Of a DNA stretch of 44,046 bases, positions 3,760 to 10,036 are shown piece after piece (positions within the stretch are counted from its first letter, which is position 1; every line of letters begins with the position of its first letter). The DNA comes from an uncultured Thermococci archaeon (GTDB lineage: Archaea > Methanobacteriota_B > Thermococci > Thermococcales > CAYNOZ01), in NCBI GenBank assembly GCA_964398955.1, contig CAYNOZ010000002.1, positions 1,814-45,859 of the forward strand, in the 5' to 3' direction. Made by a program: the position numbers and the translations under genes. The notes beneath the pieces are model-generated. The model saw only the letters and a list, made by a program, of their open reading frames with translations. It did no database searches and was not told where the DNA came from.

Positions 3760-3848
3760 TCTCTATCTTTTTTATTTTCTATAAAACCTAAAAAACTAAA
3801 ACCAAAAAACTTTTAAGTAGAATGTTTGCACATAATACAGGAATCTCA

Positions 3849-3926
3849 GCCCCGGTAGTGTAGTTCGGCCAATCATGTTGGCCTTTCGAGCCGATGACTC
3901 GGGTTCAAATCCCGACCGGGGCACCA
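3849..3926 (+). tRNA. tRNA-Glu (anticodon UUC), CCA encoded
   Basis: Acceptor GCCCCGG/CCGGGGC; anticodon stem TTGGC/GCCGA with loop CTTTCGA; T arm TCGGG-TTCAAAT-CCCGA; then ACCA. Confidence 0.88.
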
Positions 3927-3960
3927 AAAAACCATTATATAAAGAATAAATTCTTCTCAT

Positions 3961-4035
3961 GCCCTGGTAGCTTAGTGGTAAAGCGCGTCCTTGGTAAGGA
4001 CGAGAGCGCGGGTTCAATCCCCGCCCAGGGCTCCA
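3961..4035 (+). tRNA. tRNA-Thr (anticodon GGU), CCA encoded
   Basis: Acceptor GCCCTGG/CCAGGGC; D arm GCTT-AGTGGTA-AAGC; anticodon stem CGTCC/GGACG with loop TTGGTAA; T arm GCGGG-TTCAATC-CCCGC; then TCCA. Confidence 0.88.
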
Positions 4036-4157
4036 TATTGCTTAGTAAAATGCCAGCCTGCGGGTTCGCCTGTTCTAAGAACTGAATACTGCCTTAAGGC
4101 AGTTTCGATGCTGTTCCGCTTCAAAATTTTAAGTATCTGTCGAACCATTCTATAATT

Positions 4158-4565
4158 ATGCAGAGCCTAGAACAACCTGAAGGCGAGGATGAAAACCCTG
4201 AGAAAGAAATAGATCAGCTATCAGAAGGCCAGTTCTCAGAAGACCTGTATGAAGAACTTTCCAATGATAGCGAGTACAGCGATCTGGCCGAAGAACTGAT
4301 GGCAGGAGTTCCAGAAGAAGCAAGAACGAACGACGGAGTCACCTACGAAGTGAAGGGTTTCGAAGATACAGAAGATGGGATGGTCATGGCCAAGGTCTCC
4401 AACAGCAGCGAAGAGGAAGAGCTGGCGGAGAATTTGCTACAGATCTACGTTGCTATGGAGCAGTTCAAGTACGAATTGGGTCCAGAAGAAGCAGAAACTT
4501 ATGATGAGGAGATTTTGGAGCCGTTTAGACAAAGTATTGCAGGAGAGTACGTTAGAAATGCATAA
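4158..4565 (+). CDS. Hyper-acidic small protein, unknown function
   Basis: 135 aa. By my count it has 41 Asp+Glu versus 7 Lys+Arg. The coding region looks clearly GC-richer than its neighbours. Confidence 0.6.
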   Translation: MQSLEQPEGEDENPEKEIDQLSEGQFSEDLYEELSNDSEYSDLAEELMAGVPEEARTNDGVTYEVKGFEDTEDGMVMAKVSNSSEEEELAENLLQIYVAMEQFKYELGPEEAETYDEEILEPFRQSIAGEYVRNA

Positions 4566-4568
4566 GTA

Positions 4569-5075
4569 TTAATCGTTTGCAATACTTCTAAGCATTGATT
4601 TATGGTTTTCAGGAAGGTAGGTTCCCGCTTCTTTAGCTTCTTTTATTAATTTATCGGCTTTTCTGAAACTAATTTTTTCTCTTTCAATTAATTTTCCTAA
4701 AATGCCTAAAGTTCCCTTCAGATTTAAGCCAATTTTTTCACACGCCTCACGTGCTCTCCCATCGTCAAGACAGCAGAAATATTCTTTATTCTTATTATCA
4801 AATTTTTCTCCAAGTGTTAATACTGCTAATTCGCCATCTCCTAAACGAAAATATCTATTAGATAATTCCTCATGTCGATTTTTATCACACTTTATAATCT
4901 TAGAATTATTTAGAATATCTTCTGTTATAGAATTATTCGTATCTACCTCTTCGATGACATTTTGTGGTATGACTATTTCATATTCTGCTTCCAATAGTTT
5001 GTTGAAGATGATGGGTTTTTCAAGTTCCTCTATCCAACTAATAAGAATTGAAGCATCAAGAATAAGTTTAGTCAT
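4569..5075 (-). CDS. PIN-domain toxin (VapC-like; the PIN family that pairs with UPF0175-type antitoxins)
   Basis: N-terminal LILDASILI (first acidic residue). C-terminal CLDDGRAREACEKIGLNLKGTLGILGKL signature. Its ATG overlaps the stop codon of the upstream ORF by 8 nt. Confidence 0.8.
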   Translation of the reverse strand: MTKLILDASILISWIEELEKPIIFNKLLEAEYEIVIPQNVIEEVDTNNSITEDILNNSKIIKCDKNRHEELSNRYFRLGDGELAVLTLGEKFDNKNKEYFCCLDDGRAREACEKIGLNLKGTLGILGKLIEREKISFRKADKLIKEAKEAGTYLPENHKSMLRSIAND

Positions 5076-5667
5076 TTAGTCCACTCTTGAAACTTGATAC
5101 GGATAATCCTGCTAGTTCAGAAGCCTTTTCCAGACTAATTTTCTCCTTTCGATACATATTCTTAGCTAATTTAACTCGATCTTCCTCTATATCCTCCTTC
5201 AAAACTGATTGAGCAGTCATTTCTGGATAAGTCTCATAAATGTACAAAAGAAGTTCATTCTTAGTTAAATCGTTCATAAATCTCTTTATGTCTTCTATTA
5301 AATCAAGAAGATCTTCGTCAGCAATTTCATATATCTTATTTACTATCTCTTTCCCTCTGTGAGTTATTTTAATTTTCGAATTTTCTTTTTTCACGTACCC
5401 CTTAAACTGTAGGTTATCAAGAATATTTTCAACAGTCTCACTGTAAGGGCCTTTGTTATAAGGTTGGAAGTTAAAATAGTCTTCTAATTTCTTTAAATTC
5501 TTTGCTATCATGAAGATTTCTTTCTGAAGCCATAAGTTACTTGGAATTGCTTCCCCGCCATCTGCCTCTAGGAGAATAAGGAATACCTTTTCTACGTCAT
5601 CAATGTCATTGAGGTTATTTTTCTTATTCTCTGAAGTTGAATCCTTGCTTTCCAATACAATCCCCAA
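5068..5667 (-). CDS. Putative antitoxin: N-terminal wHTH-like domain plus C-terminal UPF0175-like HTH
   Basis: The C-terminal KISLEKASELAGLSVSSF resembles the UPF0175 HTH. The ORF is translationally coupled to the PIN gene (overlap AATGACTAA). Confidence 0.6.
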   Translation of the reverse strand: MGIVLESKDSTSENKKNNLNDIDDVEKVFLILLEADGGEAIPSNLWLQKEIFMIAKNLKKLEDYFNFQPYNKGPYSETVENILDNLQFKGYVKKENSKIKITHRGKEIVNKIYEIADEDLLDLIEDIKRFMNDLTKNELLLYIYETYPEMTAQSVLKEDIEEDRVKLAKNMYRKEKISLEKASELAGLSVSSFKSGLND

Positions 5668-5699
5668 TGCTTAAGTAGAACTGTGACTACTTAAAAGGT

Positions 5700-6899
5700 A
5701 TGGCGAGTCTCAAGGTAAAACTTCGATCTTTAGATGATGAAACACCCTTCTCTCATAAAAAAATTAAAGTTGGTTCAAAGAGTATAGAAACACCCGCTAA
5801 ATCACTAGATATTGGGAAAACCACAAAAAAGGATCCCGTGTCAGAAGATTCAAGAGGAATAAATGAGATATACTTCAAGATTACACCTAAAAAGCTCAAA
5901 GAAGGTAGAGAAGGAAAACACCCTCACTTCAAAAAGAAGATAGGAGGATCACTTAACAAAGCAGAAAAGGATGAATTCAACATAATTTTTCCTGCTTATG
6001 ATTCTCAAACTGAATTTAATGATGATAATTTATTCCTTTTAGTTGATACAGTTTATTCTACTTCTGATTTCGTGACTATTCCGCTAATGCCCAGTTTGGT
6101 CGATGCAATAAGAAAAGACGAGGGGAAAGGAACCGATTCTAAATTCTTTCAAATGTATAAGAACAATATAAAGAGATATATTAAAGCAGTTAGACAGATT
6201 GATGGTAAACCAATAATTGGAACTCTCCCAGCAATTTCTTGGAACTTCACAAAAGAGATAGTAGATTTATATTTAGACAAAGGCATTAGAGGTTTTTGTT
6301 TCGATTTTCTTGGAAGAACTATAACGGCCGAAAGACAGCTTTCTGATGTCGTTACACCGCTCATGAGAAAAGTATTTCAAAGAGATCTCCAAGAAGATAT
6401 ATTCTTATATGCAATGAACGCACACAAAGGTAGAAGTACCGGTAACTTTACACCAGCCAGAGATTTTCTAGGACTCGGATTTGGTTTCGATATTTTGGGA
6501 GATAAACATATTCAGAGAACAATGACTGAAGAAGTAGCTAAGAAATTAAATAGCGGAAAAGATACATTTTTCCTCTTTAATAAAAATGACTACATTTACA
6601 ACTCCTATGAATACGAAAAACTTCAAGAAAATTTACCAAGCGACACAGGATTAAATGAACAAAGAATCACAAACAAAAAGAGTCAAAAATACAAATTTCA
6701 AGCCTTAATCAACGCTGAGCAACAATCCAAAGAGTGTAAAGATCTCAAAACAAGTATAGATGAAAACAGAGTAACGGAATACGTATCTCCAAAGAAAGGT
6801 GCAAAAAGCGAAAGAATTATCAAAGAAATGAAAAGCTCAAAAAAGAAATTTAAGGAAAAGAACTCCACTCAGGTATCCTTAAGTGCTTTTAAAGACTGA
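5700..6899 (+). CDS. Hypothetical protein; weak motif resemblance to the TGT / DpdA-type TIM-barrel superfamily (unverified)
   Basis: Clean 399-aa ORF. Motifs KVGSKSIETPAKSL (compare G..ieTPaFmpv), AYDSQTEF (compare DSGGFQ) and GLGFGFDILGD (compare GvDmFD) occur in TGT order. The Lys-rich C-terminal tail is unrelated to TGT. Confidence 0.7.
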   Translation: MASLKVKLRSLDDETPFSHKKIKVGSKSIETPAKSLDIGKTTKKDPVSEDSRGINEIYFKITPKKLKEGREGKHPHFKKKIGGSLNKAEKDEFNIIFPAYDSQTEFNDDNLFLLVDTVYSTSDFVTIPLMPSLVDAIRKDEGKGTDSKFFQMYKNNIKRYIKAVRQIDGKPIIGTLPAISWNFTKEIVDLYLDKGIRGFCFDFLGRTITAERQLSDVVTPLMRKVFQRDLQEDIFLYAMNAHKGRSTGNFTPARDFLGLGFGFDILGDKHIQRTMTEEVAKKLNSGKDTFFLFNKNDYIYNSYEYEKLQENLPSDTGLNEQRITNKKSQKYKFQALINAEQQSKECKDLKTSIDENRVTEYVSPKKGAKSERIIKEMKSSKKKFKEKNSTQVSLSAFKD

Positions 6900-6912
6900 T
6901 AAAAAATCGGGG

Positions 6913-7332
6913 TTATCTTCCTACTACTGCCCATGCTTGTATATCTGCGTTTACTTCACTTTTCTTTTTTAATGTAGTCTGATGTTCTGGAGATTCATCT
7001 ATATATTCATCTAAGAAGTCCTCAAGTTCATCTAAAAGATCATCTATCTCCCAGTCGGATAGGGCCCTTCCTTTAATAAGTTCTCTTAAAGCTCTGCCTT
7101 CTTCAGTATTCTTGATGGCAATGTTCTTGAATTTCTTAAGAATCTTTTCCGCTCTTTCAGAGTACTTTTCATGTTCAGGAATTATGACCTGTTGAAGGTA
7201 TGCGATTACCATTTCTTGCTGTTTACTTTGTTTCTTTCCCTGTTTATAAACTCCAATAGATTGGTATCTCTCTTTTCTTGCTTTTACTTTTCCTGAATCG
7301 GATCTTTGCCCCAGTTTTTCTGAAGGTAACAT
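6913..7332 (-). CDS. Hypothetical acidic helical protein
   Basis: 139-aa ORF. Its 5' end overlaps the integrase fragment in another frame. An internal ATG at 7212 would remove the overlap. No recognisable motifs. Confidence 0.45.
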   Translation of the reverse strand: MLPSEKLGQRSDSGKVKARKERYQSIGVYKQGKKQSKQQEMVIAYLQQVIIPEHEKYSERAEKILKKFKNIAIKNTEEGRALRELIKGRALSDWEIDDLLDELEDFLDEYIDESPEHQTTLKKKSEVNADIQAWAVVGR

Positions 7333-7873
7333 CTTCCCATTTTACATTAAGAATCTCCCCGATTCTGCCCCCAGTATCCCAAGTAAAAAATATCATCAAT
7401 CTGTCTCTAAACAAGTCCCTGGAATTCATCAGTTTCTTAACTTCGCTTGGTCCTGGTAGTTCTTCCGGTGACGTCATAGGCTTTTTTGATCTTTTGACAT
7501 TGGTAGAGATGAAATCAACGATCTCTGGTTCTTCTTCCCCAGTAAGAAATGAGTAAAATTTTCTTATAGCTTTCTTGAATTCTTTGATGGTCCATACGCT
7601 GTAGTCCTTTTCATTTATTTCGCTGTTATTTATCTTTCCGACTAACTTCTTTAATTCCATTTTATCCGGGTCCAGAAGTGAGAAATCTATGCTTGGGGCC
7701 AGAGTAATGAATGAATACAGATATCTCTGAACAGCTTTCCTTCCAACACCCTCAGCTCTCAAATGCTCCTTGAATTCCAATATTTTTTCCAATTCTTCTC
7801 GAGAATAGTCCGACTCTTTTAGCCGGGAGATAGACTTTTTAAGCCTTCTTTCCATGTTATGTATGTCTGACAT
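7244..7873 (-). pseudogene. Tyrosine recombinase / integrase, truncated after the first catalytic Arg region
   Basis: It has an N-terminal SAM-like core-binding domain, then DTGGRIGEIL (Arg I) and the beta-hairpin KSKSKKREIPI, followed by a stop. None of the three downstream frames shows an HxxR or catalytic Tyr segment. The likely start is the ATG at 7873 (MSDIHNMERRL). Confidence 0.7.
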
Positions 7874-8463
7874 CTTGGACCTCCTTAAGGCGGCCCGCAG
7901 ATCCTTTCTCGGCAACTTAACAAACCAGAGCTTGTTCTCCCAGGGCTCCAATAAAATCTTAAGGAATAAAAATATAACAAAAACCAAAATAAAGAAAAAT
8001 ATTCTTCTAAATTACCTTTAAAACTTTAATGAAACCTCTTAACTGAAAAATATTAATAATACCAACTTAAAACAAGACCTTTAAGAATAGAATAAAAAAA
8101 TCCCAACTAACCTAAAGAACAATAAAAAATGAGGAATTAAAAGAACTAACCAATGCCACGAGTTGGAACCATACAAATCAACAAAAAGCCACAGAAATCA
8201 TCTCACCGAGTTAAAAAAAATTTAATGTTTAATATTTCCCAATTTGTTTGAAATATAAGAATTATAAAATAGATTAATTAATAACATGTTAAATCTCCAT
8301 TTATAAGATAAAATACAAATAAAGAGTCAAAACAAGTAAATCTCGATAAAACTACTTCTCAAATATTTAAAAATTATTTAATATCACATGTGTTTAAAAC
8401 ATATTTTTTAAACATATTCTTTCGAATCATAAATTGTTTAAGGATCTTAATTGATAATTAACT

Positions 8464-8636
8464 GCCGTGGTACTGTAGTAAGTAGTAAGATGACAATGTG
8501 ATCATGGATAGGGAATCATCAGGAAACCATGATGTGAACTCGTGGTGAAAGTTACGGGGGCGCATGATGTTAAAGTTGTGATGTAAAACTATCCATGGCT
8601 TGAACCTGTCATTGGCGAAAACTATGGCGCCACGGC
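8464..8636 (+). ncRNA. Candidate structured small RNA, family unknown
   Basis: Three nested helices: 8464-8470/8630-8636 (GCCGTGG/CCACGGC), 8490-8495/8607-8612 and 8503-8509/8591-8597. Three RTGATGT motifs sit at 8529, 8564 and 8578. A T6 run follows at 8639-8644. There is no ORF, and the segment is GC-rich relative to its flanks. Confidence 0.5.
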
Positions 8637-8704
8637 TATTTTTTGTTATTTAAACATTTCTCATTAAAATTTTATTTTATATTGGTTTTAAATTTGTAAT
8701 TCTA

Positions 8705-8786
8705 TTTAGTTTTTTGTTGTGTTTTTAGTTTTGTTATCTTTCATAGTTGGGTAAGACCTCGTCCCTTAGGGCGAGGATACACCCAA
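8705..8786 (+). repeat. Copy 2 of the leader + TTGGGTAAGACC + hairpin module
   Basis: See copy 1. Here the hairpin is at 8757-8776 and is enclosed by an outer helix TTGGGT(8747-8752)/ACCCAA(8781-8786). Confidence 0.6.
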
Positions 8787-9340
8787 GCTAACCTAACAAT
8801 TTTAAAGTTTAAAATCTTATATCTCGGTAATCTTTTAGAGATGGTCTCTCTATCATGGCTGGTCTAAATTGGCAGTAGGTGTCTGCCTTACCAAAAGCAA
8901 GCATGGACCACTTAAAGATAACTCAGAGCCCTGAGAGGGATATGGGTAACGGTTGCGTGGCACAACCATCAACCTACCTGTTCGATAGGACGGCTGGCAC
9001 CTTCCATCCAAAAGAACAGATAAGTTGCAAACCTTAAAAGACCAACCGAGAAGCCCCGACCCTCAGGACGGGGAGGATGTCAACTTCTTCCTCATGGAGG
9101 CTCCGCCCTTTAGGTCGGAGAGGAAATGAGGCAAAAATATTTATACTTTCCGTGAAATTAAATAGTCAAGTTTGGCTATATTTCAGACTGTTTGGAGGCT
9201 CTGCTGGCGGAGCTGTAAGCAATCCGAGTCTGAAAAGAACCTCTGCAATGCAAGTTCTAAGTATCGGAAGTGCAACCTATAAAGTTCCTGTGTCAGGAAC
9301 CCTCTTCCTCTAGGGAGAGGAGGACGTCAGATGTTAATTG
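8746..9340. ncRNA. Large GC-rich structured noncoding region (one or several ncRNAs), family unknown
   Basis: About 600 nt with no credible ORF, in a genome where intergenic DNA is otherwise very AT-rich. Many local helices are visible: 8757-8776, GGCAG/CTGCC 8871-8887, GGTTG/CAACC 8951-8967, CCCCG/CGGGG 9054-9073, CCTCAT/ATGAGG 9090-9131 (enclosing hairpin 9101-9120), TCAGACT/AGTCTGA 9183-9233, GTTCCTG/CAGGAAC 9284-9300, and hairpin 9301-9323. Confidence 0.5.
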
Positions 9341-9385
9341 CCTTTTATAGGGCTGATTTTGAGTGAGTTGGGTGGGGAAGGTGTT

Positions 9386-10036
9386 TTAGTAGCCTAGTTT
9401 TTCTTTTATGATTATTATTGTTGTGTCTGTTCTGGTTGGTTTTCTGTGTTGTATTGTTGTGATTTTACATATTCTATCTTCTGATTTGCAGTTGCTGCAT
9501 TTTCCTGTTTGGGCGCATGGTACGTTTTTATTGAGTCTTTTAGCGTTTTTTGGTGCTGCAACATTTCTTACTCTTTCTATTCCCTTATCCACGTTTTCCA
9601 CGATCTTATTTATTCCTGCGACTATTATTACTTGATCTGGTCCGAATATCATGGAAGCTACTCTTTGTCCTGTGCTATCAATGTTTATTAATTCCCCTGT
9701 CTCAGTTAGGGCATTTGTGCTGGAGATGAAAACATCTGATGTTAGCTGGTTCTTCCTTACTTGGTTCATTTCTTCGCCTTTGAGACCGCTCATCTTTGCT
9801 TTTCTATTATCCGCCACCTCATATCCTTCATCGATTAGAATATCGGATAAACCAATATCTTCTACTGTTACTGAATCCCCAATCCCAATTCTAGCCTTAT
9901 CCGGAATTAAATCCATTATTTTAGAGACCGATTCTTCTTTATTAGAAACAGAAAAGGCTTTAAAATCATTTTTACGAAAACTTTCCACTGCTCTACCTAC
10001 CTTAGTATCTGAATACCATCTTTCCTCATCCCTCAA
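9386..10036 (-). CDS. LUD (DUF162, LutC/YkgG-like) domain protein
   Basis: VIIVAGINKIVENVDKGIERVRNVAAPKNAKRLN and a Cys-rich C-terminus (CAQTGKCSNCKSEDRIC). The start is uncertain: TTG at 10036 (MRDEERWY) fits the family N-terminus, but the open frame extends to 10144. Confidence 0.75.
   Translation of the reverse strand: MRDEERWYSDTKVGRAVESFRKNDFKAFSVSNKEESVSKIMDLIPDKARIGIGDSVTVEDIGLSDILIDEGYEVADNRKAKMSGLKGEEMNQVRKNQLTSDVFISSTNALTETGELINIDSTGQRVASMIFGPDQVIIVAGINKIVENVDKGIERVRNVAAPKNAKRLNKNVPCAQTGKCSNCKSEDRICKITTIQHRKPTRTDTTIIIIKEKLGY

Follow-up and report, generated by a model that had tools for sequence, protein, structure and literature searches.

Positions 8464-8636 of the window, by which term we denote the whole stretch of 44,046 nucleotides that was analysed, are best explained, on the plus strand, as a species-specific gene for a stable small RNA, probably bound by L7Ae and of mobile-element origin; an explanation that we offer tentatively and hold at somewhat less than an even chance. 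What the analysis demonstrates are the fold statistics, the specificity of the fold for RNA and for one strand, the matches to structural motifs, and the finding that the element is a member of no family. The sequence itself bears strong marks of an RNA on which selection has acted, namely a stability particular to the plus strand and to RNA, an excess of G.U pairs, a GNRA cap, a putative kink-turn, and clean ends at a terminator.

Fold of the 173-nt element

When folded as RNA, the plus strand of 8464-8636 gave one unbranched hairpin of 56-59 pairs with a minimum free energy (MFE) of -69.5 kcal/mol; the 200 shuffles averaged -42.5 (z -7.14), and not one of them was as stable. The minus strand reached -43.2 kcal/mol (z -3.9), which value is 26 kcal/mol weaker; and as single-stranded DNA, under DNA parameters, the two strands had z values of -2.3 and -2.05. 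Since each half taken alone was unstructured under DNA parameters (z about 0), the fold signal must reside in the pairing of one arm with the other. In the stems of the RNA we counted 11-13 G.U pairs versus a single A.C mismatch, the imbalance having, at 10 against 1, a binomial p of 0.006. A neutral or decaying palindrome in DNA would be expected to contain G.U and A.C in equal numbers, so that this excess of G.U points to RNA. The weakness of the minus strand and of the single-stranded DNA folds, together with the G.U excess, means that the shape is specific to RNA and to the plus strand.

In a sliding fold of 173-nt segments across all the ORF-free DNA of the genome with a GC content of at least 0.33, the element ranked about 27th among 3548 combinations of segment and strand at only 45% GC, and the segments that outranked it—the 23S, 16S, and SRP RNAs, the tRNA clusters, and, at one end of contig C105, a single island that is unassigned—had in every instance a GC content of at least 0.53. 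The region constitutes an island of 39-44% GC in a spacer of 18% GC; the closing helix begins where the GC content rises and stops 2 nt short of a T6 run.

From its base upwards, the rod starts with a stem of 15 bp composed of helix H1 (8464-8471 with 8629-8636) and helix H2 (8473-8479 with 8621-8627) and interrupted by the mismatch of A8472 with C8628, all of which elements were common to the MFE and the centroid structures. There follow an internal loop of 9+7 nt (8480-8488 and 8614-8620), partly closed by two weak pairs; helix H3 (8489-8495 with 8607-8613); the predicted kink-turn; and helix H4 (8502-8511 with 8589-8598), whose 10 bp would be the C-stem of that kink-turn. Beyond a 5x5 loop, helix H5 (8517-8521 with 8579-8583) opens the apical domain (8517-8583), within which two CAUGAUG words pair with one another around a G.G mismatch (8528-8536 with 8561-8569), and a 2x2 loop of AA facing GG leads to helix H8 (8539-8545 with 8552-8558) and to a GAAA tetraloop (8547-8550; 8546-8551 with its closing pair U8546.G8551). 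The T6 run at 8639-8644, located 2 nt past the last pair, is a plausible archaeal terminator that, T runs being common in this spacer, is suggestive only.

The initial annotation, which had described at this place a compact RNA candidate with three nested helices and an oligo-T stop, is borne out in part: there is a compact, RNA-shaped element of the plus strand, and it ends at the T6 run. The motifs that it quoted are all present at the positions given—GCCGTGG (8464-8470) and CCACGGC (8630-8636), ATGACA (8490-8495) and TGTCAT (8607-8612), CATGGAT (8503-8509) and ATCCATG (8591-8597), and the T6 run itself—and its three helices are the outer H1, H3, and part of H4 of one single rod. The words ATGATGT (at 8529 and 8564) and GTGATGT (at 8578) are likewise there; the role of kink-turn ingredients suggested for them, in contrast, we had to abandon: the ATGATGT of 8529 pairs with that of 8564, and GTGATGT pairs with CATCA (8517-8521), so that these RUGAUGU words, being paired within the rod, are strands of helices and neither C boxes nor parts of a kink-turn.

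Further strongly folding islands were observed elsewhere in the genome. Two that are GC-rich and single-copy lie on contig C105 (3150-3389, and 600-880 on the minus strand) and had no Rfam match at E up to 0.001; the latter contains GGAGGAAAGACC, which is reminiscent of the CR-I of RNase P, an RNA otherwise undetected in the assembly. Three GC islands (C14:20-260, C47:7380-7680, and C67:300-580) are multi-copy, with 6, 10, and 4 matches, respectively, and are probably further relic families of the IS200/IS605 type. A locus on the minus strand of contig C16 (22780-23040) resembles a tRNA gene, possibly for tRNA-Trp, whose long intron contains a box C/D sRNA; the locus gave a weak Rfam match to sR3 (29.8 bits, below gathering) and has a tRNA 3' half that ends in CCA.

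Predicted kink-turn

With a descriptor consisting of a C-stem, a 3-nt bulge, GA on both strands, and an NC stem, we obtained two matches in 8464-8636 at the level of sequence, both making use of the GA at 8500-8501. One sets this GA against the GA at 8536-8537 with a C-stem of only 6 bp, in a register that competes with the rod; the other, which fits the rod, joins element positions 37-38 to positions 139-140, with a C-stem of 10 bp and an NC stem of 2 bp. In the latter match the predicted non-bulged strand is GUGA (8498-8501), where G8498 and U8499 belong to the NC stem and G8500 and A8501 to the sheared pairs. The bulged strand (8599-8605) begins with CUU (8599-8601), a 3-nt bulge situated 5' of the GA and flanked by the 10-bp C-stem; G8602 and A8603 would then face A8501 and G8500 as the tandem sheared G.A/A.G pairs, and A8604 and C8605 would pair with U8499 and G8498. 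The -1 pair is an unusual G.U, C-G being usual at that position. The structure compatible with the kink-turn had -69.1 kcal/mol versus the -69.5 of the MFE, so that forcing the geometry costs no nearest-neighbour energy. The 3' strand carries the bulge, and the NC stem points towards the base of the rod, an orientation that is also that of archaeal H/ACA kink-turns. Judged by these motifs, the RNA of 8464-8636 is a predicted carrier of a kink-turn and a likely ligand of L7Ae.

Known RNA families

Among the covariance models of Rfam 15, which database the initial annotation had named as a check, none matched 8464-8636 at its gathering score, and lax filters applied to 201 nt yielded only noise at E values of 3.6-3.8. 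The models for the TnpB omega RNA, HgcC, and sot0042 (RF00062, RF02656) gave no match with the candidate at E up to 10 on the 201 nt; the sot0042 and HgcC models matched the adjoining 8916-9343, which interval comprises two IS200/IS605 relics lacking tnpB. An omega RNA was accordingly rejected, RF00062 and RF02656 matching those neighbouring relics and not the candidate.

A box C/D sRNA was rejected as well: the 173 nt contain no CUGA at all—the initial annotation had rightly denied a canonical C/D sRNA on account of the missing CTGA—and the RUGAUGU words are internal and base-paired. Nor did we retain a box H/ACA sRNA, inasmuch as the position 14-16 nt from the pocket is occupied by C-G-C inside a helix and the 3' tail, UAUUUU, contains no ACA or ANA; a bipartite scan of the whole genome with the pocket strands for rRNA targets returned matches to U-rich low-complexity DNA only, with none in the rRNA contigs. 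An IS110 bridge RNA was discarded because no PF01548 match above the cut-off occurs in the genome, and the SRP RNA because it is located elsewhere in the genome. The RNase P RNA (RF00373) was not found in the organism's own assembly, which is 91% complete; the sister genome, however, has a canonical copy (197 bits) and no candidate, so that the candidate is not a substitute in the form of a reduced RNase P RNA.

Genomic surroundings

The candidate occupies a variable region, with a truncated integrase on one side and the two tnpB-less relics on the other. The integrase, whose Pfam match extends over only the first 71 of the 172 positions of the catalytic domain, is encoded on the minus strand; it is the neighbouring gene upstream, the candidate being about 480 bp beyond its start, and no plus-strand gene precedes the candidate. 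We found no fragment of the integrase C-terminus elsewhere in the assembly, and a split 'suicidal' integrase is therefore not supported, its C-terminal half being missing there. No direct repeat was common to the candidate and the tRNA-Thr end of the island, or to the candidate and any other part of 3800-9400, and ARAGORN recognized no tRNA-like fold in the candidate; the former integration target that the initial annotation had suspected here consequently receives no support. A Pfam scan of the neighbouring ORFs revealed no Rep gene, and no target-site duplication was seen at the candidate.

A separate contig of 10 kb (C57), with 50% GC in a genome of 34% GC, encodes two full-length tyrosine recombinases that are 29-35% identical to the truncated one; the contig could represent either a mobile element or an error of binning. 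In the spacer that precedes one of these two integrases we saw no analogous hairpin.

Transcription signals

We derived a promoter matrix, with a consensus near CGAAAGCTTTAAATAG, from the BRE/TATA sites that precede the tRNA genes of this genome, and it detected no site above background within the 60 nt upstream of 8464; the best upstream scores, 7.4 at -105 and 6.9 at -95, are ordinary for AT-rich DNA in this genome. A second T6 run stands upstream of the candidate, at 8405-8410. A processing stem, formed by an A/C-rich left flank with a G/T-rich right flank, was no better than in shuffles (p 0.21).

None of the metagenome runs listed as containing the stretch is on record as RNA. Two runs are labelled metatranscriptomic and flagged 'probably DNA'; their contigs cover 8003-8191, 9169-9264, and 9329-9400, and not 8464-8636, so that they are uninformative with respect to its expression. 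The first of these intervals, which likely starts at about 7918, is A/C-rich and G-poor, lies just upstream of the dead integrase, and is represented by short contigs of high depth that terminate in adapter; an abundant small transcript, of either strand, may be its source, although the runs are those flagged 'probably DNA'. The second is part of the second IS200/IS605 relic scaffold, where the reads may stem from other copies, and the third is the stretch just past the stop of the LUD gene.

Distribution and strain variant

Within its own genome the candidate is single-copy, both blastn and a covariance model made from the sequence plus the fold having recovered the locus alone. BLAST and the covariance model, at E up to 10, found no homolog in the sister species G001 (89% complete), nor did blastn and the single-sequence covariance model find any in 132 other Thermococci genomes, the class-level and the phylum-level searches having covered the same 133 genomes, sister included. 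Synteny with G001 is fragmentary: the proteasome ortholog lies at a contig end, no LUD ortholog is present, and the contig with the pilin-like gene has upstream a spacer of about 650 bp and an unrelated gene of 525 aa; in those partly syntenic loci that could be examined, the covariance model with its filters off gave no match. The collections of phage, plasmid, and viral sequences, JGI metagenomes, and GTDB genomes produced no true match; the viral, JGI metagenome, and GTDB contigs were scanned with transition-tolerant R/Y patterns and with a kink-turn gap pattern, and the 16 resulting matches were all due to chance, none being supported by the covariance model. The source organism occurs in metagenomes of sediment, brine, and hypersaline-lake origin. 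The relatives of the neighbouring LUD protein have 90-99% identity and the next ones 57% and below, which drop indicates that the lineage is thinly sampled.

The one relative uncovered by the homolog search that the initial annotation had recommended is a strain variant, the only other copy of the candidate: in two brine runs there are contigs that correspond to 8360-8968 with an identity of about 95%. The variant differs from the window inside the candidate at 7 positions, all of them transitions. G8489>A turns a G.U pair of H3 into A-U, A8508>G and C8593>T convert an A-U and a G-C pair of H4 into G-U, and T8546>C improves the tetraloop-closing U.G to C-G; T8533>C costs the MFE register a U-A pair; and G8522>A and A8585>G are both in loops. 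The kink-turn motif is untouched by all seven. As to the covariation that the initial annotation had proposed as a test, pairing was thus retained in 4 of the 5 stem substitutions; the fold as a whole, in contrast, was kept no better than with random sets of 7 transitions (p 0.42). Both strains keep the fold, at -69.5 kcal/mol for the copy in the window and -63.3 for the variant, and the candidate has 7 substitutions in 173 nt versus 2 in 212 nt of the flanks (Fisher p 0.085). The strain comparison accordingly provides no evidence for or against selection on the structure. As no homolog beyond this variant was found, and as no run on record as RNA contains the stretch, the RNA-gene claim is not established by the standards of the initial annotation itself, which had named a missing transcript and missing homologs among its grounds for refutation.

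The variant contigs break at 8265-8360; one of 1806 nt, containing the candidate, continues about 1.2 kb leftwards in a sequence unlike that of the window, and its depth is twice that of the contig on the integrase side. A strain without the integrase island may exist.

Alternative explanations

Five other explanations were weighed against the RNA gene, of which the principal one considers the element a fossil: an RNA-shaped remnant of a mobile element that, beside a dead integrase and IS200/IS605 relics, is no longer transcribed or useful and drifts neutrally. Such an origin would agree with the absence of the candidate from the sister species and from all the other Thermococci searched, with its location in a variable region, flanked by a truncated integrase and tnpB-less relics, with a strain comparison in which the structure gave no sign of selection and the element had changed more than its flanks, and with the lack of a tRNA-type promoter; a drifting remnant would nevertheless hardly be expected to have remained a GC island and a near-perfect rod, undecayed although the spacers are at 18% GC, to have kept its fold in both of the strains sampled, and to possess a T6 run exactly at its 3' end. 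We consequently regard the fossil as unlikely, if nonetheless the main rival. If, alternatively, the rod were the structured 3' end of a longer plus-strand transcript, as a stabilizer or terminator hairpin with no promoter of its own, then the want of a good promoter just upstream, the weak TATA-like sites at -95 and -105, and the T6 run directly after the stem would all be accounted for. This possibility we hold to be improbable: there is no plus-strand gene upstream from which such a transcript could come, that neighbour being the minus-strand integrase; the T6 run at 8405-8410 would stop most transcripts arriving from there; and a rod of 173 nt with a putative kink-turn far exceeds the needs of a terminator, archaeal termination moreover requiring oligo-T and not a hairpin.

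An element acting as DNA, be it the single-strand replication origin of a rolling-circle plasmid that has integrated, a site of recombination, or an isolated MITE or palindrome, is suggested by the terminal inverted repeats GCCGTGG/CCACGGC and by the adjoining integrase and IS relics, and is, in our estimation, more improbable still in view of the poor folds as single-stranded DNA, the single copy in the genome, the lack of a Rep gene among the Pfam-scanned neighbouring ORFs and of a visible target-site duplication, and the G.U excess, which feature argues for RNA. That the candidate was the old integration target of the integrase island, as an att site or a tRNA-like gene, we think very improbable, the one argument for it being proximity, at about 480 bp beyond the integrase start, as opposed to the missing direct repeat with the tRNA-Thr end and within 3800-9400, the lack of resemblance to a tRNA, and the absence of an integrase C-terminal fragment from the rest of the assembly. 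Finally, an atypical modification guide RNA, of either the C/D or the H/ACA type, might be imagined from the C-box-like words and from a predicted kink-turn placed above a 9+7-nt internal loop in the orientation familiar from H/ACA RNAs; we deem this scarcely credible, however, in that the C-like words are base-paired and no CUGA D box accompanies them, no ACA or ANA follows the lower stem, which is moreover 15 bp long, the pocket strands match low-complexity U-rich DNA only and not rRNA, and no guide family of Rfam is matched.

Proposed mode of action

According to the RNA-gene explanation, 8464-8636 would be a small stand-alone gene for a rod-shaped noncoding RNA of about 175 nt, an accessory gene probably brought in by a mobile element; its transcription, its binding of L7Ae, and any downstream role we infer. 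Transcription of the plus strand would stop at the T6 run, and the transcript would fold into one long hairpin with a 15-bp basal stem and a GAAA cap. L7Ae would bind the predicted kink-turn one third of the way up the rod (GA 8500-8501 against CUU-GA 8599-8603), and this binding could bend the rod and so produce a nuclease-resistant RNP; an RNA of this sort would resemble the L7Ae-binding sRkB/sRkC of P. abyssi. An action in trans is conceivable for the internal loops, which are rich in purines, but no target was found for them. We may go farther and suppose that with this element a class of RNAs not described before makes its first appearance, namely rods bound by L7Ae that archaeal integrative elements carry, in which the kink-turn would fold an arm of roughly 35 layers back onto the basal stem and the RNP would act in trans, perhaps as a decoy or a regulator that benefits the element and not the host; a supposition that we put forward as speculation, with little expectation of its being correct.

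Should the RNA be expressed, a halophilic branch of the Thermococci from which few samples exist would gain, in its accessory genome, a stable RNA that bears a kink-turn and belongs to no family, and the observation made in P. abyssi, that mobile-element neighbourhoods seed species-specific L7Ae-binding RNAs, would be extended. We accordingly present 8464-8636 as a clean candidate, not yet a discovery.

Comparison with known systems

As in the archaeal box H/ACA hairpin, the lower stem of the rod leads through an internal loop to an upper stem of about 10 layers, above which comes a kink-turn (here predicted) with its bulge on the 3' strand; the rod differs from that hairpin in the lack of an ACA box, in the 15-bp lower stem, in an apical extension of 90 nt, and in the absence of complementarity to rRNA. 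With the archaeal box C/D sRNAs it has in common the RUGAUGU words and the putative kink-turn; it possesses, in contrast, no D box, is three times the usual size, has its C-like words paired together, and does not exhibit a guide architecture. The Hgc RNAs, GC-rich ncRNA genes which Klein, Misulovin and Eddy are said to have found in 2002 by composition screens in AT-rich archaea, are similar in being strongly folding GC islands in AT-rich intergenic DNA, although the candidate matches none of the Hgc families in Rfam.

The closest parallels that we considered are sRkB and sRkC of Pyrococcus abyssi, which are structured intergenic RNAs of about 210 nt, absent from sister species, whose kink-turns were shown to bind L7Ae and whose genomic setting is of the IS200/IS605 (OrfB) kind (Phok et al., 2011; PMC3124441). 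For the RNA-gene explanation they supply a documented precedent from the same class of archaea. Those RNAs come from a repeat family with six copies, akin to the 3' end of an OrfB gene, and are multi-stem structures with two kink-turns (PMC3124441). The candidate resembles them as a species-specific, structured RNA of the Thermococcales with a kink-turn, in its case a predicted one, and an IS200/IS605 neighbourhood, and departs from them in being single-copy, in consisting of one unbranched rod, and in resembling neither the neighbouring relics nor the models HgcC and sot0042. The candidate is outside every described family, and it is, at the same time, of a kind already known, that of the orphan GC-rich kink-turn sRNA candidates of AT-rich archaea.
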